A stretch of 64,000 nucleotides of DNA, from contig OX597832.1 of NCBI GenBank assembly GCA_951406725.2, forward strand, positions 63,612,001 through 63,676,000, given 5' to 3'. Positions 1,915 to 28,586 of this stretch are shown here, one piece after another (positions within the stretch are counted from its first letter, which is position 1; each line of letters begins with the position of its first letter). The translations under genes were made by a program, and so were the position numbers. Origin of the DNA: Octopus vulgaris. Its lineage: Eukaryota. Below the pieces are notes generated by a model. That model did no database searches and had not been told where the DNA came from. It was given only the letters and a program-made list of their open reading frames with translations.

Positions 1915-1953
<39 letters not shown>

Positions 1954-3577: not shown

Positions 3578-3680
3578 CTACAGTTGAAACATTTTTATGT
3601 ACAAAATGGTTAAAATTACAAGAATCCAACTTATTCTGGAAGAAGCAGCACCACCAATTCGGCATTTCAATGTATCATAC
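3578..3680 (-). CDS. GPR158/179-ectodomain-like gene, last coding exon (GPI-signal-like C-terminus)
   Basis: Acceptor tcttttttag. Encodes YDTLKCRIGGAASSRISWILVILTILYIKMFQL then a stop: small residues followed by a terminal hydrophobic stretch. Confidence 0.82.
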
Positions 3681-6600
3681 CTAAAAAAGAAATAAAACAG
3701 ACAAACAATCATAAATGTTAGTGATGGCATGAATGGTAAAGGCATGAACATCACAACTCTCCTCTCATCCTCGAAGTTAAATGGGCGGATAACTTGCATC
3801 CCAAAAGATGAAGCAACTTCCCTGAAGCTCGCTTCCCAAATGCATGGTTTTGGTTTCAAACCCCACTGCATGGCACCTTGAGCACTTGTCTCCAATAGCT
3901 CCAAGGTGACCAATGCCTTGTGAGTGAATTTGGTAAATGGAAACTGAAAGAAGCCTGTTGTATAAGTGTATATATACATGCGTCGTCGTTTAACATCTGC
4001 TTTCCATGCTGGCATAGGTTGGATGGTTTGACAGGACTGGCAAGCTAGAAGGCTGCACCAGGCTCCAATCTGATCTGGCAAAGTTTCTACAGCTGGATGC
4101 CCTTCCTAACGCCAACCACTCCAAGAGTGTAGTGGGTGCTTTTACGTGCCACCGGCACGAGGGCCAGTCAGACATTACTGGCAATGACCAAGCTCAAAAG
4201 GTGTTTTTTACATGCCACCTGCACGGGAGACAGTCCGGTGGCATTGGCAACGACCACGCTCGAATGTTGGGCAGTGTTAATAACTTCGCATTAAAATTCA
4301 ATACTCAAATGGTTCAAAGAAAAGCATTAATTGAGCAGAGAGGATAATGTGAAATTACATAAATGATGAGAGAAAAGGAAATTACACAATGAATTTCATT
4401 AGCTCACAGCTGTTTCTGCTATGAGATGCAGAGCAGTCATAACTAAGTGCTTGTACGTCACATTTACAGCTTCAGTGGAGCTTCTAAAATGAAGTACAAG
4501 TTTATTTGGGGAATCATTTATATTTGCATCTTACAGCAGAAACAACTGTAAGCTATTGAAACTTATTAACTAGTTTCCTGTTTCCTTGTCATTTATTTAA
4601 TTTCACACACACAAACAATCTGCATGTGTGTGTGTTGTAACTTCACATCGTGAGATAGTTGTAACTAAGTGTCACCATTCTATAAGCAGTGTTCTGGGAA
4701 AACAGATCTGGCCAGGAGGAAATATTACCTCACTTGCAGACAGGCAGGAGTTGGCAACAAGAAAGAACAACTGGGTGTAGAACATCTACCTCAACACATT
4801 CCTTCGTTCTGACCCATGCAAACTTGAAGAAGTAGATGTTAAAATGATGATGGCAACAATGATAAGCATATGTGGCTGTGTGGTTAGAAGCTTGCTTACC
4901 AACCACCTGATTCTAGGCTCATACACTTGCCCAAACTGTGTGGCACCTTGAGCAAGTGTCTTCTACTAAAGCCTTGAGCCAACCAAAGCCTTATGAGTGG
5001 ATTTGGTAGATGGAAACTGAAAGAAGGCCATCATATATGTGTGTGCGTGTATGTTTGTTTGTTCCCCACCATCTCTTTTCAACTGGTGTTGGTGTTTTTA
5101 TCTCCCCATGTCTTAGCAGTTTGGCAATAGAGATCAATAGAATAAGTACCGAACTTTTAAAGGGGAAGTACTGGGGTCAACCAAAAAAACTTAAGATTCT
5201 TGAAGGTGATGCCCCAGCATGGCCACAGTCTACAGACTAAAACAAGATAAAAGATAACATATTCATAAACCTGAAATATATCTGATTAAATCTAACTCAA
5301 TGCTAAATCCCCTTCTGTGTCTGATTTGGCGTGATTCTTATGGCTGGATGCCCTTCCTAACACCAACCACTCCGAGAGTGTAGTGGGTGCTTTTACGTGC
5401 CACCGGCACAAGGGCCAGTCAGGCGGTACGGGCAATGGCCACGCTCAAATGGTGTTTATGATGCCTTTACTCCCATGCATCCCCTTTTATGAGATTCTGA
5501 AGAGAATTATGGGTAGGGCACTGCTCTTCATTCTCAGACAAAGCCTTTTTTATATTTTTTTTACCATACAGCTCAAAACATATTTTACCCGTTTCTATTT
5601 TTGTTGTAGCAAAAATACTGATCTTACCTGTTTGGCTCATTGTTCATCTTTTTCTTGTATTCATCAACCATTGTCTGACCGTTGTAATACCACTGCAGGT
5701 CCTTAAATGGGTATTCATAGCCCTGCTTACATTCACATTTGTAGGAACCTTCTTGGAATTTCAAATGGGATTGCAATGGAACACACTGGAAACAGAAAGA
5801 ATTAACTCTTATTGCATCATATTGTTTCTGATCAAAATCACCGAAAAATATTTAAAAACAAAAATATAGAACAATAAAGAACTAGGAATCTAAAATAGAT
5901 CATAAAGGCAAATAAAAATAATTAGTGATCCAAACATGATCAATGCGAGGGCTGCCTGACTGGTTCCTGTGCCGGTGGCATGTAAAAAACACTCACTACA
6001 CTCTCAGAGTGATTGGCATTAGGAAGGGCATCCAGCTGTAGAAACATTGCCAGATCAGATTGGAGCCTGGTGCAGCTGCTAGCTTTCCAGACCTCAGTCA
6101 AACCGTTCAACTCATGCCAGCAAGGAAAATTGATGTATGATGATGTTGATGATGACAGCACATCTACAAGAGATGTTATTTGGAGAAAAACTGCAGCATC
6201 TTGCCTGTCAAGGGTGTATTAATATAAAGTATGACACGTAGATGGCTGTTTTAATTTTATGCTTTAATTGCATACACTGAGTTTTGATTCAGCTCAATGG
6301 CTATTTGCAATATCAGTGAACGTATTATTAACTGTTTACTATATTGGATGAAAAAAAAATCTTATCTAGGAGTGTGACATGTCATTGACAAAATCAATAA
6401 GGCTAAAATATATTCCTGTGTTCTCTCCAGCTGCTGCCACAATGATTTTTCATCTTTCGTTGAGGTATACATATACACTCATATGTGTATGTGTGCTTGT
6501 AAGTGCAGGTTGTGTAATAAGAAGCTTGCTTCCCAACCACATGGTTCTAGGTTCAGTCCCATTAAACCACTGGATAGCACCTTGGACAAGTGTCTTCTAC

Positions 6601-9600
6601 TATAGCCTCGGGCTGACCAAAGTCTTGTAGGTGGATTTGCTAGACGGAAACTGAAAGAAGCCTGTTGTGTGTGTGTATGTGTGTATTTTCAGTTAAATCA
6701 AGGATATAAAAACTTCTTAAAGGGATGTCAGCATCCAATTTGCTGGATTTCAGATAAGTGCTCTTAATATGAGGGATGTCTAAAACCTTGAAGTTATTTA
6801 GTGATTCAATTAGAGCGATTACGTATTAGAAAGTAAAAGCAGGAAAAATTACATCATAAAAATCACAATAGAGACATGTCCATAATATGAATAATATTGT
6901 ATAAATAAATAAATAAAGTATAGCTATGATTATTTAAAAAGGTTTGAAATGTCTTACGATATCTTATAATCATAGTTATCCCTGTGATTTTTATGATGTA
7001 ATTTTTCCTGCTTTTACGTTCTAATATGATAGTAGTCCACTTGTGACTGAGGAAGACCATTGCTGACCTTCAGGAATATTGTGCGCTCTAGGACTAACTT
7101 ATGTTTTGCATTTGTGACTCCGTTGGTGGCTAGTGAGCCCTGCTCTTGACAAGTATACACGACTGCAAACATTGCAAACCAAGCTTAAGTCCTTCATAAA
7201 GAATACGTACTCTCTCAAAAGTGTCGCCCCCCTCCCCCCACCTTAACCTGCTTCCTCCATCTGTGGTGATTACAGGCATTGTTCTCCCCATCAGTCTCCT
7301 GCATATCACAGGCCTTTAATGGGGACTTGACTTGAAGGACTTGAGGACTTCTAATATATATATATATATGATACCTGTGCTGGTGGCACGTAAAAAGCAC
7401 TATCCAAAAGTGGCTGATGCCATCACCGCCATGACTGGCTTCCGTGCCGGTGGCACATAAAAAGCACCAACCGATTGTGGCCGTTGCCAGCCTCCTCTGG
7501 CCCCTGTGCCAGTGGCACATAAAAAGCACCCACTACACTGATGGAGTGGTTGGCATTAGGAAGGGCATTCAGCTGTAGAAACACTGCCAGATCAGACTGG
7601 AGCCTGGTGCAACCTCCTGGCTTGCAAGACCCCGGCTGAACCATCCAACCCATGCTAGCATGGAAAACGGACGTTAAATGATGATGATGATGATATATAT
7701 ATGAAAAGGAGACAAAAAGTTGTCCTAGAAACAAGTGAGACACTTGTCTTGGCAGCAACTATCGAGACACTTGTCCAATGTTCCATACAATGGGACCGAA
7801 TCCAGAATCACATGGTTGGTAAGCAAACACTACTTAACAATCCAGTCATGCACAATCTAAATACAAACTTACAAAGCTCACAGATATGTATCAACTCTAT
7901 AATGAACAGAATCCAAAGAGACTTATGTAGTTTGTATTGAAAAGACTTGAGTAATTTAGTACAATCAACAGAAAGAGTGCAGTGAACTTGCTGTGGGGGA
8001 ATGGAAAATCCAACATTTCGGATTGAGTTCTTCTTTATAAAAAAGTTGACTGAAGAGGAATTCAAGAAAGAGAGCAGAGCTTTACATCCTCTCTCAATAC
8101 TGCAACTTCTCTAAACTCTTTTTGTCAATTTTACCATGTAAGGAACAGACTTATGCACAGATGGAAAGTATCACAAATAATAGAAAAACTACATAGAAGC
8201 TAAAACACACACACATACACACTTATGTTAACTCTTTTGATACCAACCCACATGAGTTCACCCCTGCTGGTTCTATGATACAAACTCCCCGTTTTAAAGT
8301 GATCTAAGTCAAAGACTTCCATCTAAATTCCTTGTTAATTCATGTTCCAAACACCAGCTTAATAACGACCAAGTTATTTTACTAAATTCTTCATTATTTT
8401 CAAAATTAATTGAGATAAAATCAGAATATCTCAACAGAAATATAACAAAATGGTTAACAAACGTCTATAACAATGAACCTACAAAAAACACACAACATAT
8501 GTACTGTATATACAAATGCTGGCACCGGTGATACTAAAGATGGTGATTCTGCTATCAATAATATTAATTTGCTAGCATCACGTAAAATAAATGTCTTACA
8601 TATGTGCTCTCATAGTCACAACGAGCAGTGTTCTTGAAGGCGTTGGCAACATAAAAATCAGCAGGGCACTGGTCTACATCCAAATGTTTGATGTCAACAT
8701 CAACTGTGACAACTCCCCTGAAATTAAGAAAAAAAAGGTGTGGAAAATATTAGTAAATGATATATATAACAAGGGTTGAACTGAAGAGGTGAGGAGGAAG
8801 AGAGTGAAAAGATTAGTTGAAATATACTTATAGATTAACTAGAAGAGCAATACAGATTAGTAAGGAGCTGCGAATAAATAAGGTAGATAGGTATAGACTA
8901 GTAAGAATGAGCTGTAGATTAGTAAAAGTGACAATAAAGATTAGCAAAAAAGTAAGTACAGAATAGCAAGAAGGAAGAATAGATTAGCAAGAATATGGAT
9001 GCGTGAACTAGATTAGCAAGAACATACAAGAGTGATCATTGCCAGAGCAACAAGCTGGCCTCCATGCCAATGGCATGTAAAAAGCACCATTTGAGCGTGA
9101 TTGTTACCTGCGTCACCTTACTGGCATTTATGCTGGTGGCATGTGAAAAAACATTCGAGTGAGGTCGTTGCCAGTGCTGCTGGACTGGCTCCTGTGCAGG
9201 TGGCACATAAAAAGCAACATTTGAGCATGGCCGCAGCCAGTACTACCTGACTGGCCCTTGTGCCGGCGGCACGTAAAATCACTCACTACATTCTTGGAGT
9301 GGTTGGTGTTAGGAAAGGCACCTAGCTGTAGAAACTCTGCCAGATCAGATTGGAGCCTGGTGCAGCCATCTGGTTCGCCAGACCTCAGTCAAATCGTCCA
9401 ACCCATGCTAGCATGGAAAGCGGACGTTAAACGATGATGATAATGATGGATATAGATTAGGAAAATTATAAATCAAAATTAGCAATACAGAAAGTATAGA
9501 TTAGCAAAATCTGGGTTTAGATTAGCAAGACGACAGATATTGATTATCAAGGAGCTAGGAATAAAGTAGCAAAAAAAGAGTACTAAAAACTTATTAAAGA

Positions 9601-12600
9601 TAAGAACATAAGAATTAGCAAAAATAATGAAAAAGAAAATCAAACATTTAAAAAAAATAATCAAGAATAACAAGAATTTGATGAGATTATTGCTAATCTG
9701 TTTTTGTTCTGGGTAGGACTTTAATCAGTATCCAGTAACAGAACTTAACCCTAATCCTGGTTCTGGGGTTTCCAAAGTTTTGAAAAGTATGAAACCACTT
9801 CTTAACGGCTATTGTCCTTGGGTCAACTCTGATATGAGAGTAGTAATACTATAAGTTAAACAGCAAGTAACTACCCAAACCAGGTTATTTTGAAATCAAT
9901 GGACACAGTATGATGGATGTGAACAAGAAACTAACAGTTAACAGCCACGATAAACCAGTTCAGTTAGCGAACTACTATCATTATAAGCTGTGGAGTACAC
10001 AGGTGAGATACTTCAGCTAGCGAAAGAGCAATGTGACTAAAACTTGGGTCAGGCATTCGTGCCTAATCACTCGATCAGGTTGTCTGGTGTGGAAGAATTA
10101 CACATAGGTCTGGGTAGATTGTCCGACCTGGATGGTGAAAATATCAGTAGAGACTATCACTGCCAATCACTTGAGACTAATTTGCTACTGCTGTTGTTGT
10201 TGTTACTACTACTACTACTACTACCACCACCACCACTTCTACTACTACAATAATAGCAAGCTTCTACTTTAAGGAATTAGCTACATGACTTCACCACAAA
10301 GAAACCATTACTTTTCCTTTCATCACTTTCACTGTTTTGTCACCTGGTCCCAAGAATTCACTACCCACTCCTATCTTTAATCCTTGACATACTTCAGTCC
10401 TTAGACTGCAACCATGCTGGAGCACCACCTTGAAGGGTTTCAGTCAAACAAATTTACTCAAGTGGTTATTTTCTTTTGAGCCTGGTGCTTGTTCTACTGG
10501 TCTCTTTTGCTGCCAAACCACTAAGTGACATAAACAAACCAACACCAGTTGTCAAGTAATGGTAGGGGACAAATACACACATAAATATACAGGTACACAC
10601 ACACACAATGGGCTTCTTTCAGTTTCCATATACTAAATCTACTCACAAGGCTTTGGTCAGCCCAGGGCTATCGTAGAAAACACTAGTCCAAGATGTTGCA
10701 CAGTGGGACTGAACCTTTGATCACAGGGTTGCAAAGCAAGCTGCTCACCCACACAGCCACACCTTGTTACATTTTTTTCTGCAAACATTGACCTACAAAT
10801 GTTGATACTGAACATCAGCCACATTAATGTCTGCATCATGGGACAACCTGAAAAGATCACAGGCACTATTTTGTTGCTTCTGATAAAATGTTTTGTCTTT
10901 ATTATTCTTTCACTAAAGCGGTGAGCTGGCAGAATCGTTAGCACACAGGGCAAAATGCTCAGAGGCATTTCATCTGTCTTTACGTTCTGAGTTCAAATTC
11001 CACTGAAGTCAACTTTGCCTTTCATCCTTTTGGGGTCAAATGTGATTTTTATTTATGCCCCATAACAAAGCAGTTCAACAGAGACTGATAAGATAAGCAC
11101 TAAATCTAAAAATAAAAACTGGGGTCTGGATCAATACAATCACTCCCAAATCCTTCAAAATGGTACCTCCAGCATGGCTGCAGTCCAATAACTGATAAAT
11201 GGGAAAGACAGACAAAAAAAATAGCAGAATTGGTTTGAATCATTACCATATTTGATGGCATAAAAGACACACAAGTATATTTAAATGCACTTAAACATAC
11301 TCAATTTTAGCAGCATGTTATGCAAGAGCAAAAAAATTAGTGCGTTAAAGTGAATGGAAAAACCAACTTTGCACACAGGACCCAGGGTGGTTTTTAAGAT
11401 ATTTGCTTTTGAAACAAAGTGCATCTAATAATCCATCAAATATGGTAGGTTAATTAGCAAAGAGGCAACTTACTTAAACTCAATTTGAGTCTTCAATGTA
11501 TTCATTCCAAAGAATGGAACAACATAAGTGAGGACCCAAGCATCAACTCTGCCATCACACTTAAAGACAGGACGTAACCATTCTCCATCTTCATATTTTG
11601 GTGCATGGTATGTGAGTGGATAATACTCAAATCTAATCAAGCTGGATCCATTGATATCTGACCGAATCATTGGACGAGTTATAAATTTTTCCAGTGATTG
11701 ATAATTAGTTGCCCAACGAGATTTCATGTCAGTAAACCAGCGCTTATTTGTGTAACGCTGCTTGAAACCTGCAAAATCAATTACTCTGGCAGTTGTTTTG
11801 TCACCAGTTTTCCAAGCAAACGGACCAAAATATTCTCGTGTTACTTCATTAACATAGCGTGGGTCAGTGTTATTTCCGGGTGATATCCGGTATTTGTATT
11901 GGTCAAAGAATACACCAGCACCAACGATCTTGAAGTCACCCATGACAGTAGCAATAACCTCTCCATACATCTGGGTATCATGTAAGCGTCGATCACCTCG
12001 AAGAATACCAAATTCTTCATACTCATCAACATTTTGAAGAAAATTACTGAGAAAGTGAGCCAGCCTCAGTGCAGTACGTCCTTGTGATTCAAACTGCTTC
12101 TCAGCACCGAACCCAGCATCTCCTGGAAGAAGCAATTGGTTTGCTGTGCGGCTTCCGCAGTTGTCTTTGTTGGTGTTTTCTTTACGTTCAAGGATTTCTC
12201 GCATTCTCATCCACATGACATTATCAAAGAGATCACGTTTCTTACGAGAAAGAAGGTCTTCTTTTGGAACATGCCGCTTATATTTACTGGGCCGTAATGG
12301 AATGAAATCTTTTGAAGTGTATTTTTTATTTGATTGCAGCCATCTGAGACTCCTGTGGGACTGAGGAAATATAATTTTCAGAAATTCGTCTTTCTCAGAA
12401 CTATAAGATGATATAGACCGTTTCTTCATATTCTCAATAATAGTTGGGTTCTTCTTTGGGATTACCTGAGAAACTAGAAACAAAAAATAAAAAATAAAAT
12501 TAAGTGAATTTTTATCAATCTTTCCTAAAATATCCACAAAACAAACAAACAAAAAACCCATCGTCCTTATTATCATCATTAAATATCTGTCTCCCATGCT

Positions 12601-15600
12601 GGCTTGGGTTAAACAAAAAGACAAACTACACTGGTTGTTTAACCAAAAAAGATCAGTATTCTTTCAACCAAGATGTACTCAAATGTACAACAGCCTAATC
12701 ATAGCTTAGTTGGCTGAAACTTCGAAGTCACTGTCAGTACAAATACTATTCTTGTTTACATTTGTAAATAATGTACATAATTCCTCATCTCTCAAATAAG
12801 GAACTGTACTATTCTTGATAATGGATATTAAATAATTAAATAAGTAGATACACACACACCAGGCTTCTTTTAGTTTCCATCCACCAAATCTACTTGGCTT
12901 TGATTGGTCTGGAGCTGTATAAGACATTTGCCCAAGGTGCCATGCTGAAGGATTGAACCTGAAACCAAGTGGTTGGGAAGCAAACTTCTGAAGCTCACAG
13001 CTATGCTTGCAACCATTCTTAAGGTTAAAATTAATTTTATTATTATTATAAGGTGTTTAGCAGCATTTCATTTGTCCTTATGCTCTGAGTTCAAATTCCA
13101 CCATGGACAACTTTGCCTTCCATCTTTTCAGGGTTGATGTAATCAATTTATTCCCTTCCCACAGAATTCCAGGCTTTGTGCCTATAGAAGAAAGGATTAT
13201 TATATGGTGGTGGTCAGTTGGCTGAATTGTTAGCACATCAGACAAAATGCTTAGCATCATTTCGTCGACCTTTATGTTCTGAGTTCAAACTGTGCTGAGT
13301 CAACTGTGTCTGTCAAGTGCCAGTTGAGCATAAAAAAATAAAACTAGATATTTGTTTCCTCAAGCCATGCCAAGTTTGTGAGGACCGGTTTCCTGGTTTC
13401 ATCATCATCATCATCGTTGTTTAACGTTCACTTTCCATGCTGGCATGGGCTGGATTGTTAAATTGTGAACTGTTAAATCTGATCTGGCAAGGTTTCTACT
13501 GCTGGATGCCCTTCCTAACGCCAACCACCTCAAGAGTGTAGTGGGTGCTTTTTACATGCCACTGGCACAGAAGTGGGGGTGGTAGTCAGGCGGCACTAGT
13601 ATCAATCATGCTCGAATGGTGCTTTTTATGAACTACTGGCACAGGGGCCAGTCAGGCAGCAGTGGCACTGACCATGCTTGAAAGGTGATTTTTATGAGCC
13701 ACTGGTATGGGTACCAGTCAGACAACACTGGCATGTCAGGCAAAATGCTTAGTGACATTTCACCCATAACTATGTCTGAGTTCAAATCCCGCTGAGGTTG
13801 ACTTTGCCTTTCATCCTTTTGGGGTCAATAAATTAAGTACCAGTGAAACACTAGGGTCGATAATACAGTTCTATATTTAAGAGATGAGGAATTATGTACA
13901 TTATTTACATTTGATGGATATTTGCCCTCATCTTGTTTGTTGTTATACCTGATATACCCTCAAGCCTTCATCAGGTGTCGAACCTGTGTTCTCATTCCTA
14001 AGGTATTTTTCATTGTTGTTGTTGTTGTCATCAAAGACACAAGACAAAAACCATACCTGTTAATTGACATGACAGTATCTACTGATACATACATCACAGC
14101 AAAGGAATTTGAAAGACTATCAAAATAGAAGGACCTTGAGATTGAGATATCTAGGACGTGGCAATTAAAAACCAAAACCATCCCTGTTGCTGAAGGTACT
14201 CTAGGAATGATCAAGAAAGGTACTGACAAATTTTTTGACCAAATCCCTGGGAGACAAACAATCTATTAGACTCCAAAAATTGTGTTGATATCAACTGCCT
14301 ACATTCTCAGGAAATTTCTCTCCATCACCTGGGTCCCTGGTTGAGACCTAGTCTGAAGATGAAATTTCAAATTTTGGTACAAGGCCAGCAATTTCAGGAA
14401 GGGGGTAAGTTGATGGCATTGACCCCAGTACACAACTGGTACTTATTTTATCAATCTTGGAATTTGAACTCAGAAAGTGAAGACATATGAAATGCTGCTA
14501 AGCATTTCGCCTGGCATGCTAACAATTCTGCTAGCTTAAGAATAATAATAATAACAAGAACACAAACCTCTGCCAAGACAACATCAATGTCCTCTCAACA
14601 ATTAGGCAGAGATGATTTTTAAAATGAGAATATCTGAAATAAACTCAACTACTCTCACAAGTGAGGATACTAAAACTGAACCCAACCTCTCTCAAAAATT
14701 AAGTTAAAAAAACAGGAAAAATAATCCAAAATCTAATCAGTCATGAGGCCAAACATCTGTGAAAGTTCCATCTGAATCCATCCAGCGGTTCTCAAGATAT
14801 CTTGTTCACGAATAAACAAGACTGAAAAAAATACCTCAACCTTCGCTAAGGCAGAGGTAATAATAATAATAATAATACAGATACATGATCCTTTATCTGG
14901 AGACCCTGGAGACAGTTGTGTTCTGAATTTTAGACTTTTTTAGATTTCAGAAGAAAAGCCAGCTGTCCTACACTGTAAACTAGACATCAAAACAGACATC
15001 CAGCTATGGTAGCAAAAACACATATTATATGTACACACAGTGGGAAAAATATAGAGTAATATACTGATAAATGAAACGGTGAGATAATTAAGATCAGAAG
15101 TAAAATACACAGAGTGGGATAATTTAAAATAAAAATACATGATCCACAAGTCTAGGTATACACATTACCATAATATTTCTGTACAGAGACACATTAGTAT
15201 TCACAATAATTTGAATAAAGAAAGACTACAAACTGTATTACAAACTCGGCTAAATATGTAACTGCAGTTAAGTTGTAAAACAGGGCTTGTCAGTGTCACC
15301 AACATTGTCATCAGGTTGCAGGCAAACTTCTAATGATGGGTCAGAAACAAGATTCTCAACTGACGAAGTTGCACTACAAGAGAGGTCATTTTTAAAGGCT
15401 TCATCAAGTGTCATCTGTCTCATTAGCATAGGTTTCTGTCTGAGCAATGTCTCTTTAATTGAGTAAACTCCCATAAATAATTGCTCACTGATAAATGCAC
15501 GTTGTTCAAGACCAGCTTTACTCTTTTACTTGTTTCAGTCATTTGACTGTGGCCATGCTGGAGCACCGCCTTTAGTCGAGCAAATCGACCCCAGGACTTA

Positions 15601-18600
15601 TTCTTTGTAAGCCTAGTACTTATTCTATCGGTCTCTTTTGCTGAACTGCTAAGTTACAGGGATGTAAACACACCAGCATCGGTTGTCAAGCGATGTTGGG
15701 GTGACAAACACAGACACACACATATATATACATATATAGAATTGGCTTCTTTCAGTTTCCGTCTACCAAATCCACTCACAGTGGGACTGTACCCAGAGCC
15801 ATGTGGTTCGTAAGCAAGCTACTTACCACACAGCCACTCCTACGCCTATGATCACAAGTTTTCATTATATTGTCTGTGGGAATTTTTTCACCCGTGTCCT
15901 CAGTGTCATCATCACTACTGTTTTCATTCTTATCCGTATTTAACACCATTTCAGCAACTTCCCCATCACTCAAGGAATGCACAAGTTCATTACTGCCAAT
16001 GTTTACCGTTTCTTCAATGTCTGCTTCTTCTAGATCACTTCCACAGGATCAATTTTTCATGTACCAGAAGCACGAGCTGATTGCAGGCAAGCTGGACTGG
16101 AAGAAAACTGTAAAATTCTATTGTTCCTAGACAACTGCTCTGCACATCTTCCTGCTGAAGTTCTTGTGAAAAGTAATACTTTCAGCGTTTAGTTGCCTCC
16201 CAATGTTTTGATATCATCTGCTTCTCATTAGAGACACAAAATCCTCAAAACTAGTTATCTATAGGGTTGTTTTCATTAAACATCGTTACTGACCATATTC
16301 TGTGCCAGGCATTTGTTACTGTTGATTTATCAATATCTTTCCAAGCATTTGGAACTGCATAGACGGCATCCTTAACAGTAAACTCTTTCAGGTAGTCTTG
16401 CATTCTCACTCCATTGTTTGACTGCATCAAACACACAGTTCATAAAATTATTTTTATAGTTGTTCTTCATGGAGCGTTAAATTCCTTGGTCACAAAGCTG
16501 TAAACCAGATGTCACATTGGGAGGCAACTAAACGCTGAAAGTATTACTTTTCACAAGAACTTCAGCAGGAAGATGTGCAGAGCAGTTGTCTAGGAACAAT
16601 AGAATTTTACAGTTTTCTTCCAGTCCAGCTTGCCTGCAATCAGCTCGTGCTTCTGGTACACCCATTTTGTCCAGTGTGCTAACAATCTACCAGCTCGCAA
16701 TAATCATCATCGTTTTAACATCTGTTTTCCATGCTGGCATGGGTTGGACGGTTTGACTGAGGACTGGCAAGCTCCAATCCAATCTGATCTGGCAAGGTTT
16801 CTACAGCTGGATGCCCTTCCTAATGCCAACCACTCCAAGAAATAATAATAATCCTTTCTACTATTGGCACAAGGGTTGATTACTTTGACCCCAATGCTCA
16901 ACTGGTGCTTATTTCATTGGCCCCCAAAAGGATGAAGGGCAAAGTCGAACTTGGTAGCATTTGAACTCAAAACATAAAACTGGAAGAAACAATTCCGCCA
17001 GCTTGCTGCCTTACAAATAATAATAAGATAAATGAAATAACTAATGAATTTCCTTACAATCAACTTTGAGACAATCAAAGCCAGTTTCATATTCTTCTTT
17101 TGTAGCAGCTTCTATTTCTACTCCAAGGAATGGTCCATCATGCCACCAGGGATATTTGTATCCAGGTAGGCATGCACACATGTAACCACCACGTCGGAAA
17201 CCAAAACCACTCAAAGGTTCACACTGAAAGAAAATACAAATCAGTTTATTATACATGCATATATGTAAACACACACACACAGACAGTGGCTGAGCATCCT
17301 GTCCTTGGTGGGCAACTTTTAAAACACAATGCCTTGGCAGAGTTTCGGGATAGCACACTCACATAAGCTGGATTTTCTCTATTTTCACAGACATTTTTCA
17401 AAATTTTTTCCACTACATCCTTTACAAACGATGAAATGAAGCTTTTTATGAAAAAATTCTTTGAAAATGCATGAATCTTTCTTCCCCACTTCCAGACTGA
17501 TCTTGTTCAATTTTTTTTGCCCTATGCACTTACAATGGGAAATAAATGCAATTTTGGTAAAAATAAAAAAAAAAAAAAAAAAAAGTAATTCTTTGGAAAA
17601 TTAAAAATTTTTTTCAAATCCCACTCCCCCACTGAGTTCCAAATTTGGCCAATTTTTTTGTTGCCTTGAAGGTTTGAAAGAAGAAAAAAAATTGGAAATG
17701 GCAATCTCCACTTCCTTTATTTTCAAACAGAAAATACAACATAATACTGGAATCTTCAATTTTTTCATTAACCTTTCTTTCCCATCCATAAATTCTGAAA
17801 TTTTCATTAACCCTCCATAAATCCTAAAATTTCGATTTTTTACTAAAATTTTTCTTTAATCATAGTTTTAAAATACAAACAGTCTGAATCTGCAATTTGC
17901 TTCTGTTTATGAGTTCAAAATAATTTTCAGACAAAAATGTGTATGATTTAAGGGAGGCTAAGCTGTTGTTTCTAACACATCCCACAACCACCTGCTACCT
18001 TATGCATTTCTTTGTCACTGTGACAATATCCATTAACAAGAATAGTACAGTTCTATATTTGAGAGAAGAGGAATTATGTACATTTTTTCAATATCCTCCC
18101 CCCCGCCAACATTTTCTGGGATGATGCTGTGGTGGTCTATAGCTAGTATATAAGGCAACAAAAACAACAAAATTTTTAATCCACCATCCTACATCAGGCA
18201 AACCCATGTGTGTGTGTTTAAGAAAAATCATAATTACTAACATAAAAGTATGCTATTAAAATAAATTATCATTTACATACCTTTTGCAAATCACACTGTC
18301 ACCCTAATGAAATTCCATACATACATGCATACACACACACTCAGCATAAGTGATATACTTTTATAGAGAATGAGAGAGAGTGTGATAAAAATGTGTAGAG
18401 ATGGGGAAAGTTTACCATGAGAAAAGCAAAATCGATTTTCAAATTTGGTATATTGATGTACTTTTTCATGCTGAATATGAGTTTGTGATTTGTTTATTCC
18501 AGCAATATTCAAAACGATATATATATAATCGAAATCGATCAATGGAAATCGATCAATGGAAATTGCAGATGTGTTACCAGTGCCGGTGGCATGTAAGAGA

Positions 18601-20951
18601 ACCTTCCGTTTCGCGACCGTTGCCAGCACCGCACCGTTTCGTGTCCGTTGCCAGCCTTGCCTGGCCCTCGTGTCGGTGGCACATAAAAAGCACCATCCGT
18701 TCGTGGCCATTTGCCAGCTCTGTCTGGCACCAGTGCGGGTGGCACGTAAAAAGCACCCACTACACTCACGGAGTGGTTGGCGTTAGGAAGGGCATCCAGC
18801 CGTAGAAACACTGCCAGATTTGACTGGGCCTGATGAAGCCTTCTGGCTTCACAGACCCCAGTAGAACCGTCCAACCCATGCTAGCATGGAAAGCGGATGC
18901 TAAACGATGATGATGATGATGATATATATATATATATATAGCAATAAGAAAATGGAAGGGATCAATAGGTGGTTCATCAATTTTTAGACATTATATTGTG
19001 TCAATTTATTTATACATGTATGCATATTCTTGTAATTGTCATTTTAGTAAATAAATAAATAAATTGACATAATATAATGTCTAAAAGTTGATGAACCACC
19101 TATTGATCCCCTCTATTTCCTTATTGCTCTATAAATTAATGGTAAAATAACTCTTTACCCTCACCCATTTAGTACACTCAGTAATGTAATTGCAATGCAA
19201 TAAAAAACACTTGTGTATTAATAATTGGGTATTCTAGCAGCAGTATAATGAATAGATATTATCCCTTAGTGGGTTGGATTCACAACCTCTAATTTTCTTG
19301 GATATATATATATATATATATGAGGTTTTGGTATCCAGAGGACCCAAGAGGCAGGTAAGGCTAAATAAGCACTATGGAAGGACTGCTGTTAAACTCCTGG
19401 TTCAATAATAGTATGACTGTGGAGTCTAAGGTGGGTCGTTTCTGAGCATGTATATGTTAAATAAAATGAGATAACAAGGCCAGAGCAAAGTGATATTTCT
19501 AGGACATTTATAAAGAAGGTGGTCTTACAGTTGTTTCAGGGAAATAAATGATATCCCATCATCAGAGACATGTTAAGAGAAAACTCTCTTAACAACTTGT
19601 CTCTGATGATGGGATAACATTTATTTCCCTGGAATAGCTGTAAGCCCACCTTTCTATTCATAAATTGCCTTGGCCGTGTTATCTTATTTTAGTTAACACA
19701 CACATATATATCATCATCATCTTCATCATCAAATGTCTGTTTTCCATGCGGGCATGGTCTGGACAGTTTGACCAGAGCCAGTAAGGTCAGAGGCCACCCA
19801 CCAGACTCCATCAAAGAATAAGTCCTGGGGTCAGTTTGACTAAAAAAAAACCTTTAAGGCAGTGTTCCAGCATGGCCACAGCCAAATGACTGAAAAAATT
19901 AAAAGAATATGTATATATTATAGTAAGTTATGGTGTGTAACAATTTCTATTTTCACAAAACTTGTAATCTTTTACAAGACCTTTTAACGTTTACATTTCT
20001 TTTACAATTCTGTGGCAAACAGACAATGATGTCAATGTGTCTTCATAAAAAAAAAATATTTGCTTTGTTCTGCAGTGATGACATTTAAGTTGACACTAAT
20101 TAAATCGAGATATACAACACAATTGAGACTGGCGATAATAAAATTGACAGAAATGGTGGTGAATTCGAGTTTGACATCAATGAAATCAAAATTGATGAAA
20201 TTGAGGAGAAAACTCAGTAAATCTCAACACATCATACACCTGCCACCAGTATTCTTCTCTCAAACCCTCACATTTCCTTGCATTTACTCAAAGACTTTAA
20301 AGGAATCGTTCTCACTAAAGTGGTGGGTTTGCATCGAGCTGTGTTAGCAAAATAGTTTGGTGAGGGATTTCCGTCAGCTATTGGACATGGGTTAAAATCA
20401 ATACGTTCAAATTCCAAATCAACAGTCGTAACAGCCACAAATCTAAAAGAAAAAAATATATAACAAGAGAGTAAAATAAGATAAACAAATAAAACAAAAG
20501 CAAATCTTGCAGTTTATGAAATTATGTATTTTTTTTATTAAGCACTGGAAGACTACACTCTCTGTCTTGAGCAAGAGACTTCATTTTATGTGGTTCTTGT
20601 CCACTCAACTAGCAAAAATGAGTTGTACCTGGAATCCAAAGGGCCGTGGAGTACTCGGCCACTTACATGTTAATTTCAGGAGCTGGCTGTTCTGTTGATC
20701 GGATTGACTGGAACACTCGTAACTAACAGAGTGACAGTTTTACAAAACACACACATATATATATATATTTTTCTTTTACTTGTTTGTCATTTGACTGCAG
20801 CCATGCTGGAGCACCACATTTAGTCAAGCATACTGACCCCAGGACTTATTTATTGTATTGGTCTCTTTTGCTGAGCCGCAAAGTTACGGAGACGTAAATA
20901 CACCAGCATTGATGTTGTGGGGGACAAGCACAGACAAACATATACACACAT

Positions 20952-20985
<34 letters not shown>

Positions 20986-21188
20986 GATCGGCTTCTTCCA
21001 GCTTCCATTTACCAAATCTACTCACAAGGTTTTGGTAGGCTCAAGGTTATATTAGAAGACTCCTGTGCCCCTATATATATATCACCGTGTCCGACAGGCT
21101 ATCAGATGTTGCTACACATCGCTGGTCACAATGCGCTTCGCATTGTTTTAGTCTTCAAATGATGCCACCCCGCTGGCTAAGCAAGCAG

Positions 21189-21248
<60 letters not shown>

Positions 21249-24200
21249 TATATATAAATAACTGCCACAATTTGATGCTAGAACAAACCTGCCAGTCTTG
21301 ACTCCATTTACAAAGATACTTCAAGAACAATTTGGAGTTGTTTGTTATATTTGACTCGAGTTTAAAATTCTGATGCTGTGCATTGCTTCTAAGCTGCACC
21401 AGGCTCCCATCGGATCTGGCAAGGTTTCTACAGATGGATGCCCTTCCTAACACCAACCACTTCGAGAGTGTAGTGGGTGCTTTATACATGCCACCGCCAC
21501 AGGGGTCAGTCAGGTGGTCCTGGCGTTGATCATATTCAGATAGTGCTTTTTACATGCCACTGGCACAGGAGCAAGTCAGCAGGTGCTGGCATTGGGCATA
21601 GTCAGATGGTGCTTTTTACGTGCCACCAGCATGGGATTCAGTCAGGCAGACCTGGCATCAACCACAACAAAACACAATTGTTTCTTAAGAGACTTTCTTG
21701 TGACATAAACATGGTACAGGCAGGCATGCAGTATATATATATATATATATATATATAAGGTTAATCCAAACGGGAAAACAGAAAAAGCAACAACACAAGG
21801 AGGTAGAACAATTAAAGTATTATTATTAGGCGCTCAGGAAAATGGGAAGAAGGAATATATATATATAATAGAAATATGTTACAAAAAGAAAATAGAAACT
21901 ACACATGGAAATGTAAGGGGAAAGTAAGAAGAAAAATAAGCGAAAATGCACATTGGAAATCGAAAAAGTAAAGGCTTTTTATGAAAAGTAACAATAGATA
22001 TATACAATTAGATGAACTGAGGTAGGAATAAAAGTAATAAAAGTCATTATTGTGAATTGTTAAAGAGATTTAAAAACATACTGGTTTCGTAAATTTACTA
22101 ATCATTGCTTTGAATGCACACCAATTAATGAACAGTGTCAGGTCTACTAGTCCCTGAGTAAAAAGATTATGAGTAAGGAAGGTAAGTAGTTCTGGTTTTG
22201 GTGTAATTAGGGTAGATATAGATCTATAATGTGAATGGTGTATGGGATGTATGTGGGTTTGTATTAATTGAAAAGTTAGTAGTATTCTGTATTATGTTAT
22301 GTGTTCATATTGAGTTGGGGAAGATATTTATAGATGAAAGTTGCCTCTTTATTCCTTTTTTGTTGTACTGAGGTGTTCTGTGAACATTGATAGAAGGGGA
22401 AAATTAGGAAATTAGGATTAAGATTCCTAGCACACCTTTCTATGTGTTCACTAACCTGTATCTATCTGTATTGTGGGTGGCGAATTTGTTCTTTGTGGAG
22501 AGTGGCTTTTCGACGGAGTGATATTCCTGCTTGGCCAATATAATTATTACCACACCCTAAGCATGTCATGGCACAGATTAGATTTTCTGAAGCACAGGTG
22601 AAATTTAATTTGATCTTAAATATTTCACCTTCACTTTAAACAAGGTTTGACCACTTCCTGTACCTATATCTTAGAACCATCATGGCCATCCGATGTGGCT
22701 TTTTAAACCAGACAATGTTCTGAAAAGATACCCACACAGATTGCATATCTGATTTAGACCACCAAGAGCTGCAGATAAGTTCTGAACTTTGTGGATCTTA
22801 AAATGTCTTTTGAAGCCTCCTTTGGATTTGCAAACCTAGCATACGCTGCATTCAAAGGTGTGCTCAGACATATAGGCAGAATAATTGGTGGAAATTCGTT
22901 TTCCATGGGTTCACTGATGAGATTTGAGTCCAGCAAAAGACAGGTATGGTCTGTCACAGACTGTGCACACAAAAAGGTCATTGTTATTCACCTTCCTGAT
23001 AGTTACATTCTTCTTTAGATCTCTGAGTCCTACATGCACTATCCTGGGCTCTTCAAATGCTTTCACTCCACTCTACACTTTTATTCGCCATTCAACTCGA
23101 TCCGAAGCAAGGGTTTCTATGTCTTCTGGATCCATTCCAAGTGACTTCATAGTAGTCCTTAAACATCTTTTTTAGGTTTACGCCAATAGTGTTTCCCCTC
23201 TGCAAGATCTGTTTTGGCATGCACTCATCTGCCATTCAAACAATCTGGCCACACCATCTCATTTGCTTCCTCAAAATCATAGCTTTAATTGAGGTGATGA
23301 CTGCAGATGCAAGGACATCTGTGTTTGGGATAAAAGGACTCCATTTAATTTTTTAAAAAAGTTTACATACATATAGGCGCAGGAGTGGCTGTGTGGTAAG
23401 TAGCTTGCTAACCAACCACATGGTTCCGGGTTCAGTCCCACTGCATGGCATCTTGGGCAAGTGTCTTCTGCTATAGCCCCGGGCCGACCAATGCCTTGTG
23501 AGTGGATTTGGTAGACGGAAACTGAAAGAAGCCTGTCGTATATATGTATATATATATGTGTGTGTGTGTGTGTTTGTCCCCCTAGCATTGCTTGACAACC
23601 AATGCTGGTGTGTTTATGTCCCCGTCACCAAGCGGTTCGGCAAAAGGAGACCGATAGAATAAGTACTGGGCTTACAAAGAATAAGTCCCGGGGTCGATTT
23701 GCTCGACTAAAGGCGGTGCTCCAGCATGGCCGCAGTCAAATGACTGAAACAAGTAAAAGAGAAGAGAGAGATACATATACACGTGTTGCCTGAAATCTGA
23801 TGAAAAGATTGGCGGAGAGTAACAGACATGACATATCTGAGGAAACTCAGAAATTCGACAGTGTTTGATTACATTCCACATGAGGAAACATCAATATACA
23901 ACTGTTGCTGAAGGATATTTATATAGTAATCCTAAAGAATAATCTGAAATAATGATATATAGATGTAAACAGGGCAACTTAAAGCTAGGCGTCTGACGCA
24001 GAAACAAATGTTGCATTTTGATACTACTTCCATGTTCGTGTTATATGTCATCATTATCATCATCGGTTAACATATAATATTCTACTTTGATAAAGGGTTC
24101 AACCAAAATGCCATTCTCTTTTCCTTTACTTTTTTGGCGAAAGGTGCACAACTTTGATTCTTATTTTTTGTGTGTGCTTCTATATTCTGTCCATCACTTC

Positions 24201-25486
24201 TCGAATATTAGATCGACTTGTAATCTCTCACGTTGTCCATTTGTACATTACTTATTCCCCCACGTTCTATTTTTCAAATATAGATAGGTAGGATAGATAT
24301 CCAGGAATTTCAAAGTGGAACAGTTGGACTAGCAGTCGAGTGTGCCCAAAGTAAAATAAATGCGTCATTAATTTAAAGTGAAATCATACACATAGCTATA
24401 AACTCGATCCTAATTATTTAACTAAAACTTAATTCGCATTTGTATATTCTTAGGAACATAAAATATGAAAGAGAGAAATATAATATAAATATAATATACT
24501 TACTGAGGTCTTCTTAAATGAGTAAAATTCGAATATCGAGGCATAAACTCAACAACAGGAGATGTTGCACTAACAATCCATTTATTTGATCGTCCACAAT
24601 CAAAATAAGGATCAGTGAAGACAACAGGAAGGATCGTCATTTCTTTAGTACCCGGTTGAGGTGGGCCAAAGAAAGAGGATACTTGGAAAGTGTCGGTAAG
24701 AAATTCACCTGTCTTTTCTGACCGTCGAATACCAATATTGTAGGTATATTTCCTCAGTGTATCTAAATTACTGTTGAGATCAGGTAACCATTTAGAGTAC
24801 CAAGGGCTGTGTTTGTAGGCAGAGTTGGTATAATTATGACTTCGACCGGCTCCAAAATCGTGAATGTCAATCGTATTGTTTGTAGGTTCCCGCAACCAAT
24901 TTGTGGGTTCGTTGTAGTCATCCACTCTCCAGGCTTTGGGGCCAAAAAGGGGTAAAGTACCGTTGATTTTCATCGTCGTGTACCAATTAGGATATGAACA
25001 GTTGTTGTCAAAGAACAGTCCACTACCATTTATCATACTAATTCCAGCGGAAACATCAGCGGCCAAAGAGAAGTAGATATATTCAAAACCTGGTTGTCTA
25101 CCTAAGGCCTCGCTCTTGTTAAGTTCCTGATAGATATAACTGTAGTAAAATGCCCTATTAAGGGCCAAGTTGTGAGCGTGCAACAGAGAAGATCTATTTG
25201 TGTAATAAACAGTCGACAAGAATTTATTATAACGAGGTACTTGGGATATAACACCTTTTTTTAGATCTGTATCCAAACGAAGATCTGTGTAGTGTTTCGA
25301 GCGACAATTTTCTCCAGTTACCGATGTAAACTTATCCATTATTTCATCAAAATTGTCTTTTGAAGAAAGTTCGAAAGGTTTTCCATTACTTGAAGAATCA
25401 CTCCAAGAAAATGAAAATATTAAAATACAAACAAATACCACAAATGCCGAGCTGGGGAAGCCGATACAACTCGGCCTTCTCTTCAT
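3578..25486 (-). CDS. Gene model (7 exons, about 884 aa): secreted/GPI-anchored protein with two tandem GPR158/GPR179-type extracellular (Cache-like + EGF-like) units and no 7TM
   Basis: Exons 25486-24504, 20442-20316, 17223-17058, 12473-11474, 8717-8600, 5785-5628 and 3680-3578 all have GT-AG borders. They join in frame (phases 2,0,1,2,0,2; 2655 nt). Motifs FTDPYFDCGRSNKWIVS / WLRPVFKCDGRVDAWVLTY, IDFNPCP / LDVDQCP and GFRRGGYMCACLPGY / GSYKCECKQGY resemble the GPR158/179/CG31760-type ectodomain. Confidence 0.88.
5628..5785 (-). CDS. GPR158/179-ectodomain-like gene, exon 6 (EGF-like module 2)
   Basis: Acceptor tgtttccag, donor GTAAGA. Encodes CVPLQSHLKFQEGSYKCECKQGYEYPFKDLQWYYNG..., paralogous to exon 3. 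Confidence 0.9.
8600..8717 (-). CDS. GPR158/179-ectodomain-like gene, exon 5
   Basis: Acceptor taatttcag, donor GTAAGA. Encodes GVVTVDVDIKHLDVDQCPADFYVANAFKNTARCDYESTY, paralogous to exon 2. Confidence 0.9.
8805..9625. repeat. Degenerate array of TAGATTAG(C/T)AA cores (about 21-bp period) split by a SINE
   Basis: About 15 cores, at 8811-9020 and 9453-9620, with variable sequence between them. Confidence 0.65.
11474..12473 (-). CDS. GPR158/179-ectodomain-like gene, exon 4 (basic linker with RKKR + second Cache-like unit)
   Basis: Part of ORF 11470..12624. The acceptor tttctag at 12474 restores the frame after the phase-1 intron. Donor GTAAGT at 11473. Confidence 0.9.
13863..14020. repeat. 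Dispersed Penelope-pLTR-like repeat (tacagttctatatttaagagatgaggaattatgtac...)
   Basis: Copies at about 12745-12815 (inverted), 18036-18085 and 57712-57850. This copy has a hammerhead 5' half on the minus strand (acacCTGATGAaggc), but the GAAA half is missing. Confidence 0.5.
14020..14350 (+). mobile_element. 3' fragment of R4/Dong-like LINE (RLE end)
   Basis: Encodes LLIDMTVSTD...KEFERLSK*KDLEIEISRTWQLKTKTIPV..GTLG. Confidence 0.65.
14876..16660 (-). mobile_element. Tigger/pogo (JERKY-like DDE_1) transposon relic with nested SINE and internal inverted duplication
   Basis: Encodes KILLFLDNCSAHLP...LPPNVTS..Q.CDQGI and KEFTVKDAVYAV.NAW. Tigger-like terminus tacag...atcctttatct at about 14876. 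Contains stops and frameshifts. Confidence 0.8.
15517..15848 (-). mobile_element. SINE family A copy nested in the Tigger relic
   Basis: Reverse complement of the 23376 element, with an internal deletion. Confidence 0.8.
17058..17223 (-). CDS. GPR158/179-ectodomain-like gene, exon 3 (EGF-like module 1)
   Basis: Acceptor tttcag, donor GTAAGG. Encodes CEPLSGFGFRRGGYMCACLPGYKYPWWHDGPFLG...FDCLKVD. Confidence 0.9.
18560..18923 (+). mobile_element. SINE family B 3' part with (GAT)n tail
   Basis: ggtggcacgtaaaaagcacccactacactc..gagtggttggcgttaggaagggcatccagc...catggaaagcgga..ttaaacgatgatgat. Copies at about 590-830, 3985-4268, 5940-6155, 7370-7693, 9030-9447, 13400-13735, 21390-21665, 35410-35765 and 38110-38390. 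Confidence 0.8.
19522..19569 (-). ncRNA. Minimal type I hammerhead ribozyme (Penelope pLTR type), intact core
   Basis: Minus strand reads GTCT-CTGATGA-TGGGA(TATCATTTATT)TCCCT-GAAAC-AACT-GTA^AGAC. Stem I is GTCT/AGAC, the core is CUGAUGA + GAAA, stem II is GGGA/TCCC, stem III is short, and the cleavage triplet is GUA. Confidence 0.7.
19599..19646 (+). ncRNA. Second (inverted) hammerhead copy with mutated core
   Basis: Reads gtct-ctgatga-tgggataacatttatttccct-GGAAT-agct-gta-agcc. GAAAC is changed to GGAAT. Confidence 0.55.
20316..20442 (-). CDS. GPR158/179-ectodomain-like gene, exon 2
   Basis: Acceptor tttcttttag, donor GTGAGA. Encodes FVAVTTVDLEFERIDFNPCPIADGNPSPNYFANTARCKPTTL. Absent from the ORF track. 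Confidence 0.9.
21757..22632 (-). mobile_element. Penelope-like retroelement 3' relic (GIY-YIG endonuclease + pLTR)
   Basis: About 22632-22310 translates FKIKLNFTCASENLICAMTCLGCGNNYIGQAGISLRRKATLHKEQI...EHIERCA...FLIFPFY...IYKYLPQLN. A degenerate hammerhead lies at about 22078-22112. Confidence 0.75.
22900..23330 (-). mobile_element. RTE-clade LINE 3' fragment
   Basis: Encodes MKSLGMDPEDIETLASDRVEWR...GVKAFEE followed by a Cys motif, typical of RTE ORF C-termini. Confidence 0.6.
23376..23765 (+). mobile_element. Near-complete tRNA-derived SINE (family A, CORE-like domain)
   Basis: A-box ggctgtgtggtaag, B-box ggttcagtccc, CORE-like tcttgggcaagtg, 3' ccagcatggccgcagtc...gaaacaagtaaaag. Many other copies, e.g. 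about 4870-5255, 6505-6670, 10395-10765, 15517-15848, 20775-21060, 55050-55410 and 61710-62040. Confidence 0.85.
24504..25486 (-). CDS. GPR158/179-ectodomain-like gene, coding exon 1 (signal peptide + first Cache-like unit)
   Basis: Part of ORF 24500..25540. ATG at 25486 (MKRRPSCIGFPSSAFVVFVCILIFSFSWS, hydrophobic signal peptide). Donor GTAAGT at 24503. Confidence 0.9.
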
Positions 25487-28117: not shown

Positions 28118-28586
28118 GTACCAAACCCTTCAGAGTGGTGCCCTATCATGGCCGTACCAAACCCTTCAGAGCGGTGCCCAAGCATGGCCGTACCAAACCC
28201 TTCAGAGCGGTGCCCAAGCATGGCCGTACCAAACCCTTCAGAGCGGTGCCCTATCATGGCCGTACCAAACCCTTCAGAGCGGTGCCCTATCATGGCCGTA
28301 CCAAACCCTTCAGAGCGGTGCCCAAGCATGGCCGTACCAAACCCTTCAGAGCGGTGCCCAAGCATGGCCGTACCAAACCCTTCAGAGCGGTGCCCAAGCA
28401 TGGCCGTACCAAACCCTTCAGAGTGGTGCCCAAGCATGGCCGTACCAAACCCTTCAGAGCGGTGCCCTATCATGGCCGTACCAAACCCTTCAGAGCGGTG
28501 CCCAAGCATGGCCGTACCAAACCCTTCAGAGCGGTGCCTTAGCATGGCCGTACCAAACCCTTCAGAGCGGTGCCCTAGCATGGCCG
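28118..28586 (+). repeat. 36-bp minisatellite, 13 copies, derived from the SINE-A 3' end
   Basis: Unit ccaaacccttcagagcggtgcccaagcatggccgta, head to tail with no spacers. The last unit runs into the SINE tail gcagtcgaatgaatgaaacaa. Confidence 0.95.

Follow-up and report, generated by a model that had tools for sequence, protein, structure and literature searches.

A conserved protein with tandem GPR158-type ectodomains and no receptor body in Octopus vulgaris

The closest described systems to the protein reported here are the receptors GPR158 (mGlyR) and GPR179. In GPR158, the linker comprises an epidermal growth factor (EGF) part, held by three disulfides, and a D loop, held by two; the D loop touches extracellular loop 2 of the seven-transmembrane (7TM) domain, and the Cache dimer packs α4 against α5' (PMC8611064). 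In GPR179, strands cross between the protomers, and the Cache domain binds pikachurin (PMC11437087). GPR158-type receptors were assigned a ligand only recently, and the mechanism of the Cache dimer is still under question. Here we describe a gene on the minus strand of a 64,000-nucleotide stretch of Octopus vulgaris DNA (contig OX597832.1, positions 63,612,001 to 63,676,000; hereafter the window, in whose numbering gene coordinates are given). Its product carries two ectodomains of this type in tandem and no 7TM domain. The protein is not a G-protein coupled receptor (GPCR); it is a real and conserved variant built from GPR158-type parts.

Domain architecture and gene structure

A hydrophobic N-terminus precedes unit 1 (approximately residues 36-425); a basic linker, whose last residues are RKKR (502-505), connects it to unit 2 (506-857), and the chain closes with a tail of 27 residues. 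In the Pfam scan, PF22572 matched the protein twice (E 1.7e-46 for the whole protein), a weak PDC/Cache signal was found, and 7tm_3 (PF00003) was absent. None of the 20 genome matches to 7tm_3 that were found, a number that is a lower bound, was located on the contig of the window, in agreement with the original prediction that the receptor body is missing. The two units share 25% identity (E 4e-20), and each contains an EGF-like module with six cysteines, corresponding to three disulfides as in GPR158 and GPR179. When single exons were searched against the PDB with phmmer, no significant match was obtained; with the family profile, GPR158 and GPR179 were the sole matches. AlphaFold2, run on the identical database record P0200 with an alignment of 136 sequences, gave a predicted local distance difference test score (pLDDT) of 86.1 and a predicted template modelling score of 0.85 over both units; in parts of the linker the pLDDT fell below 50. 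The top Foldseek matches were GPR179 (E 1e-11 and 4e-9), a bacterial Cache sensor and GPR158 (E 7e-5). With VIA-align, unit 1 was superposed on the Cache fold 3lic (Z 13.9, root mean square deviation 2.6 over 153 residues) and unit 2 on GPR179 (Z 10.3, 4.8 over 243 residues). By Pfam, profile, Foldseek and VIA-align, a Cache ectodomain of the GPR158/GPR179 type is present twice; the tandem arrangement and the structural similarity to the GPR158 ectodomain that had been anticipated were both found.

The exact point at which the protein ends had to be corrected. In 12 of the 12 invertebrate receptors examined, a four-cysteine module is located between the last EGF cysteine and the first transmembrane helix (TM1), and this module is absent from both units. 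Judged by its cysteine pattern, the octopus protein ends before the four-cysteine D loop, earlier than TM1, and not where TM1 would begin, as had been claimed. The protein has thereby lost the element through which the head is coupled to the 7TM domain.

The gene model was derived from long open reading frames and splice signals, and comprises seven coding exons running from 25486 to 3578, with all introns of the GT-AG type and a coding sequence of 2655 nt for 884 residues. The product is letter-identical to P0200, whose source name is Octopus vulgaris hypothetical protein; this record differs from that of O. sinensis at 6 positions and from that of O. bimaculoides at 49. Exon 1 (24504..25486, residues 1-328) opens with the first methionine after an in-frame stop, and encodes a predicted signal peptide (about residues 1-30, 25397..25486; hydrophobic core with a 19-residue Kyte-Doolittle (KD) value up to 2.3) and the Cache domain of unit 1, including the pocket motif FTDPYFDC (residues 290-297, 24596..24619). 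Splice signals and contigs delimit exon 2 (20316..20442), with the last Cache strand and the start of the EGF-like module of unit 1, and exon 3 (17058..17223), with the remainder of that module. Exon 4 (11474..12473), based on contigs and AlphaFold2, encodes the mostly disordered linker (residues 426-505), whose furin-type motif RKKR (12235..12246) stands immediately before unit 2, and the unit 2 Cache domain with a pocket motif that is degenerate by alignment, WLRPVFKC (residues 724-731, 11557..11580). Exon 5 (8600..8717) holds the last Cache strand and the start of the EGF-like module of unit 2, and exon 6 (5628..5785) that EGF-like module, both again delimited by splice signals and contigs. 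The coding part of exon 7 (3578..3680), based on contigs and alignment, contains the last cysteine (C857), a run of small residues GGAAS (3655-3641) that is likely the omega region, the hydrophobic tail and the stop.

Spliced contigs were available from four public runs belonging to four studies and three organisms; no run is recorded as RNA and their RNA status is presumed, although the spliced contigs imply it. The junctions E3-E4, E4-E5, E5-E6 and E6-E7 were spliced in contigs of all four runs and E2-E3 in three of the four, so that five of the six junctions are supported by contigs. The E1-E2 junction is inferred from the identical record P0200 and from contig letters upstream of E2, where three contigs extend for 1161-1477 letters, which gives room for exon 1 and a 5' untranslated region (UTR). 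One contig, continuous with exon 7, runs past the stop to 2710, approximately 870 nt downstream, and defines a 3' UTR at 2710..3577. This may be longer, as separate contigs of the same runs cover stretches to about 1104. The GT-AG introns, the identical record and the spliced contigs confirm the seven-exon model proposed before.

One could suspect that the gene model is truncated, or that the gene is the decaying remnant of a 7TM receptor, because contigs show the presence of an isoform and not its absence, and the joints examined were those listed, with 223 more beyond them. Against this, exon 6 was spliced onto the stop-bearing exon 7 in all four runs. The same tail ends the family across protostomes, an amplicon of the fly member CG31195 runs through it to the stop, and 7tm_3 was found in none of the 66, 120 and 4 homologue rows listed in the searches described below. 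This explanation can practically be set aside, and the splicing and the architecture of tandem units without a 7TM domain are as good as certain.

A protostome-wide family and its fly and mosquito members

A search with exon 1 returned 66 long homologues, and a search with a springtail member returned 362 matches, of which 120 were listed. The taxa among the matches listed were molluscs, annelids, a nemertean, a brachiopod, flatworms, rotifers, an orthonectid and arthropods, to which one further search added a nematomorph. No two-unit form of deuterostomes, cnidarians or nematodes was among the named rows of the matches listed (120 of 362, and 150 of 1584, 10 of which were looked up by name). 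The possibility of uncharacterised homologues in other invertebrates, raised originally, was thus supported. The octopus protein displays the family signature of a signal peptide, two PF22572 units, a short hydrophobic tail and no 7TM domain. On sequence grounds the family is protostome-wide, with CG31195 as the fly member, and its members are present in databases under the domain label 'GPR158/179 extracellular domain-containing protein'; the ESM Atlas cluster has 1026 members. Several members are misnamed (P0109, P0128, P0132 and P0060, as 'G-protein coupled receptor 158' or 'Fras1 related extracellular matrix protein'), and the former annotation needs correction, as the family members scanned have no 7TM domain. 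A search for longer fused forms gave four proteins (P0423-P0426), none with 7tm_3. Among them, cestode records are joined to WD-repeat (WDR7-named) domains and a Seison record to enzyme domains, probably as merged gene models.

The alignment used for the following counts (A2, n = 136) was composed of P0200, 61 of the 66 exon 1 homologues (five, mostly partial, were omitted), 72 sequences hand-picked from 119 and two cluster members. It was divided into 60 spiralian and 76 arthropod members, some records being assigned by which search returned them. In an unrooted tree of 13 + 13 units and 12 receptors, units 1, units 2 and receptors were each separated by a branch with support of 100/98-100. 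The units therefore cluster by their position in the chain rather than by phylum, which places the duplication of the unit before the split between spiralians and arthropods. Both this tree and the profile alignment place unit 2 nearer to the receptor ectodomains than unit 1. In molluscs the whole two-unit gene was duplicated, and the gene in the window is a co-orthologue of CG31195 and of the mosquito gene AGAP001418. Two octopus paralogues were located on contig C1 near 136.97 Mb (L001, L002, L014) and 128.14 Mb (L003, L004, L016); their exon boundaries match in the pieces seen, they carry furin-type sites and belong to a faster-evolving mollusc clade, and their last exons were not found. 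Likely true GPR158-type receptors, with PF22572 and a nearby 7tm_3, are situated on C9 (49.25-49.36 Mb) and C2 (125.52-125.58 Mb). A third likely receptor locus, with a four-cysteine loop and a TM1-like segment, lies on C1 at 132.93-132.95 Mb (L007 and L008 are among the receptor loci).

The octopus protein shows approximately 41% identity to the CG31195/AGAP001418 family, with the same two-unit architecture and tail. AGAP001418 is paired with FBgn0051195 (CG31195) in the MozAtlas orthologue table (PMC3129592). When the CG31195 amplicon given in PMC5727397 was compared by eye with the tail of the D. simulans member P0186, the two differed by one substitution, and a stop followed. Expression is broad in both insects, with relative values of 0.31 in salivary gland and 0.26 in ovary for the mosquito, and of 0.36 in ovary, 0.16 in accessory gland, 0.14 in salivary gland and 0 in midgut for the fly. 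The chemosensory role suggested in the original prediction is therefore unlikely in octopus, as these orthologues are broadly expressed and highest in ovary and glands. Published work further indicates that CG31195 lies in an intron of Syp, where a screened insertion may affect it, and that it has been used as a mapping marker. An 802-residue match to CG31195 was reported in the accessory-gland secretion proteome of the fruit fly Bactrocera (PMC4652233). A search by gene name found no functional study of CG31195/FBgn0051195 in the literature covered (most subscription journals and bioRxiv supplements lay outside it); the accession-based search gave no publications, and topic searches gave no title or abstract on this architecture. 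The O. sinensis gene identifier was absent from the three searchable supplements of the octopus brain single-cell paper (PMC9712504).

CG31195 appears in PMC5727397 as a target of the microRNA miR-184, with two 8mer sites, one of which scores 4.4. This raises the possibility of a GPI-anchored (glycosylphosphatidylinositol-anchored) protein of epithelial barriers of the septate-junction type, similar in its working to Undicht without being its orthologue. In the carcass of the miR-184 mutant, the mosquito orthologue is up 1.6-fold (adjusted p 0.008), together with undicht and three claudin orthologues. Ovary and glands show higher expression than midgut and tubules, where it is low. On the other side, the argument is one of co-regulation only, the mosquito gene being row 1042 of the miR-184 table, and no miR-184 seed match was found in octopus window 1001-3577. 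In adult surface glia, CG31195 expression is also below that in brain (-4.4), although these data do not discriminate, since CG10217 and sinu are likewise lower. Orthology to Undicht (CG10217) was considered and rejected: the mosquito orthologue of undicht is another gene, AGAP002289, and the evidence leads from AGAP001418 to CG31195. A barrier role is considered unlikely on balance.

Predicted pairing and cleavage, pocket and tail

When units 1 and 2 were folded as separate chains, the interface score ipSAE was 0.80, versus 0.00 for the best control, with runs agreeing in at least 79% of contacts and a partner pLDDT of at least 71. Among microbial pairs, 51 of 78 solved and 2 of 108 mismatched ones reached the pairing mark; among eukaryotic pairs, 39 of 65 and 2 of 126 did so. 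The predicted interface comprises 240-272 contacts. In the best of these, helix 554-573 is packed with helix 134-147 and helix 591-604 with helix 96-121, and extra strands cross between the units. In these contacts, helix I from one unit lies across helix II from its partner, an arrangement that matches α4-α5' of GPR158; the crossing strands match those of GPR179. The models make it probable that the two units pair as an internal pseudo-dimer, a feature which the original prediction overlooked.

An R-X-K/R-R motif is present in the linker of 59 of the 60 spiralian members versus 1 of the 76 arthropod members. In 57 of the 60 spiralians the furin-type site is within the last 30 linker residues (shuffled linkers: mean 10.5, maximum 18), and 47 of these 57 sites lie 10-11 residues before aligned position 516. 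The median linker length is 44 residues in arthropods versus 114 in spiralians. The site expected in the octopus linker was thus corroborated by its conservation in spiralians, where furin likely cuts after R505 or its equivalent. Arthropods do without the site, so cleavage would not be essential to the core job of the family. By cysteine count, all eight cysteines in unit 2 correspond to the paired set of the receptors, and in unit 1 C163 alone is apparently unpaired; a disulfide joining the halves is thus not expected, since unit 2 would have no cysteine left for it. C163 (24998-25000) is a cysteine in 39 of the 60 spiralians and in none of the 76 arthropods, and could form an intermolecular disulfide.

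Residues 265-272 of GPR158 (WSPPYLEC) align to FTDPYFDC of unit 1 and to WLRPVFKC of unit 2. S266, Y269 and E271 are taken here to be residues of the GPR158 glycine pocket. In unit 1, the first equivalent position holds T or S in at least 130 of 136 sequences, the second Y in 135 and the third D in all 136, and the same motif is present in 12 of the 12 receptors examined. In unit 2, Y is found in 61 and D is found in 74 of the 76 arthropod members; in the 60 spiralians these numbers fall to 22 for Y and 16 for D. The acidic EGF positions are retained in both units (D343; D772/D774). The alignment indicates that the octopus protein probably has one receptor-type pocket, located in the half that cleavage would untether. 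The double ligand binding proposed originally was not supported, as the receptor-type motif is intact in unit 1 only.

The last cysteine aligns in 135 of the 136 sequences. In these 135, small residues occupy position C+3 in 100%, C+4 in 87% and C+5 in 99%, and a hydrophobic run then ends the chain. A GPI-like rule of our own, which was written after the tails had been seen and is not a trained predictor, was passed by 132 of 135 members, versus a mean of 33.6 and a maximum of 48 for shuffled tails. By this rule, the elements of a GPI signal (small residues at the omega site, spacer, terminal hydrophobic run) are present. The GPI-like tail described earlier thus gained support, and GPI attachment is likely, near G860-S864, as suggested by the conserved small residues and the terminal hydrophobic run. 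Alternatively, the tail could be an uncleaved single-pass anchor with almost no cytoplasmic part, the remainder of the proposal being unchanged. Many tails end basic after the hydrophobic run, and residues 869-883 of the octopus protein are modelled by AlphaFold2 as a helix. This alternative seems rather doubtful given the near-invariant small residues at C+3 to C+5, the median of just 3 residues after the uncharged run and the modest hydrophobicity of the octopus tail (19-residue KD maximum 1.71).

Taken together, and by analogy with the receptors, the protein may be a lipid-anchored, non-signalling, single-chain copy of the receptor ectodomain dimer, acting as a co-receptor or surface organiser; this is the explanation tentatively preferred here. 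The tail of the secreted chain would be replaced by GPI and, after furin cleavage in spiralians, unit 1 would remain non-covalently on the anchored unit 2 through the Cache helices and the swapped strands. The paired head would bind an extracellular partner, by analogy with GPR179 Cache and pikachurin. The unit 1 pocket possibly takes a small ligand, and octopus unit 2 would serve mainly as scaffold and tether. Several observations weigh against this proposal. Close cousins of true partners passed the same pairing mark in 10 of 12 cases, and the pass of the two units may stem from their likeness to the solved GPR158 and GPR179 homodimers. Conservation at the predicted interface does not exceed that of the remaining residues in each unit (p 0.32 and 0.29). 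Besides the late writing of the GPI-like rule, the stretch that follows the uncharged run is longer than 5 residues in 32 of the 135 tails. In the papers found that mention CG31195, no phenotype is cleanly tied to the gene. Finally, GPR179 retains several pocket residues yet gives no glycine response (PMC11437087), and therefore the motif does not name the ligand.

In place of this anchored co-receptor, a released carrier or decoy can be considered, in which the freed unit 1 or a shed ectodomain would diffuse and either take up a small ligand or form a pair with a GPR158-type receptor ectodomain, thereby tuning that receptor. The intact pocket motif is in the half that cleavage would free, spiralians conserve the furin-type site, the accessory-gland secretion proteome (PMC4652233) includes the protein, and the genome contains two loci with PF22572 and 7tm_3 plus a third with a receptor-type stalk and a TM1-like segment. 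The large predicted interface between the units, the lack of the site in all but one of the 76 arthropods and the greater distance of unit 1 from the receptors make this quite improbable. A bolder candidate would make unit 1, which keeps the pocket and in spiralians would be cut by furin and stay non-covalently on the anchored unit 2, a releasable sensor head that could bind a ligand resembling an amino acid and pass it on to GPR158-type receptors, or itself move onto them; it is offered as a speculation with a low chance of being right. In the same candidate, the protein would be an ancient protostome copy of the dimer with specialised halves, a 7TM-less partner of class C GPCRs of which no description was found in the literature searched, and this part is just as speculative.

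What this analysis adds is the prediction of an internal pseudo-dimer, a cleavage site specific to one lineage, the asymmetry of the two pockets, the loss of the module that contacts the 7TM domain, and the connection to CG31195. A receptor-less, self-paired version would represent a soluble model of the Cache dimer with two different pockets, and the fly orthologue makes the gene open to knockout, tagging and assay.

Other features were observed in the window. A 36-bp minisatellite of 13 copies with 96% matches, open in several frames, is found at 28118-28586, and decayed fragments of a non-LTR (long terminal repeat) retrotransposon, with weak RVT_1 and zf-RVT matches, at 30815-31771. DNA-transposon fragments are located upstream of the gene (45518-45850, ISXO2-like DDE, E 1.2e-7) and inside intron 3 (16254-16439, a weak DDE_1 piece).

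Comparison with known systems

Undicht (CG10217) is reportedly a GPI-anchored surface protein, to go by the title of a 2019 work by Petri. It resembles the present family in this respect and as a miR-184 target; it differs in being a separate gene, with AGAP002289 and not AGAP001418 as its mosquito orthologue.

The alpha2-delta subunits of calcium channels have Cache domains, a VWA domain, an internal cleavage with a disulfide between the halves, and a lipid-type anchor. The octopus protein shows the same overall design, with Cache domains, a putative internal cleavage and a probable C-terminal anchor, and its Cache domains matched chains of calcium-channel complexes in VIA-align (Z 6.5-7.2), which could point to an auxiliary subunit of an ion channel. 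Such Z values are, however, within the range common for unrelated folds, and the Foldseek matches were not significant over the whole chain (E 0.14-0.29). The octopus chain is accounted for by the signal peptide, two units, linker and tail, with no VWA domain in Pfam; by cysteine count, unit 2 appears to offer no free cysteine for a bond between the halves, and the ancestry is from GPR158-type receptors. A channel role is very unlikely, and the architectural likeness drawn originally is reduced to an analogy.

Compared with the octopus protein, the arthropod members CG31195 and AGAP001418 differ in their short linker, the lack of a furin-type site and a pocket motif that is mostly kept in both units.

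The closest likeness is to GPR158 (mGlyR), GPR179 and the invertebrate GPR158-type receptors. The octopus protein differs from GPR158 and GPR179 in having two units per chain, a GPI-like end and, as in other spiralians, a furin-type linker, and in lacking the D loop, the 7TM domain and the cytoplasmic tail that binds RGS proteins. It agrees with the receptors in the Cache domain with one disulfide followed by the three-disulfide EGF-like module, and its unit 2 profile spans most or all of the ectodomains of the invertebrate receptors (E 1e-45 to 1e-51). The helices of its predicted dimer also correspond to those of GPR158 and GPR179, and the acidic EGF positions are kept.

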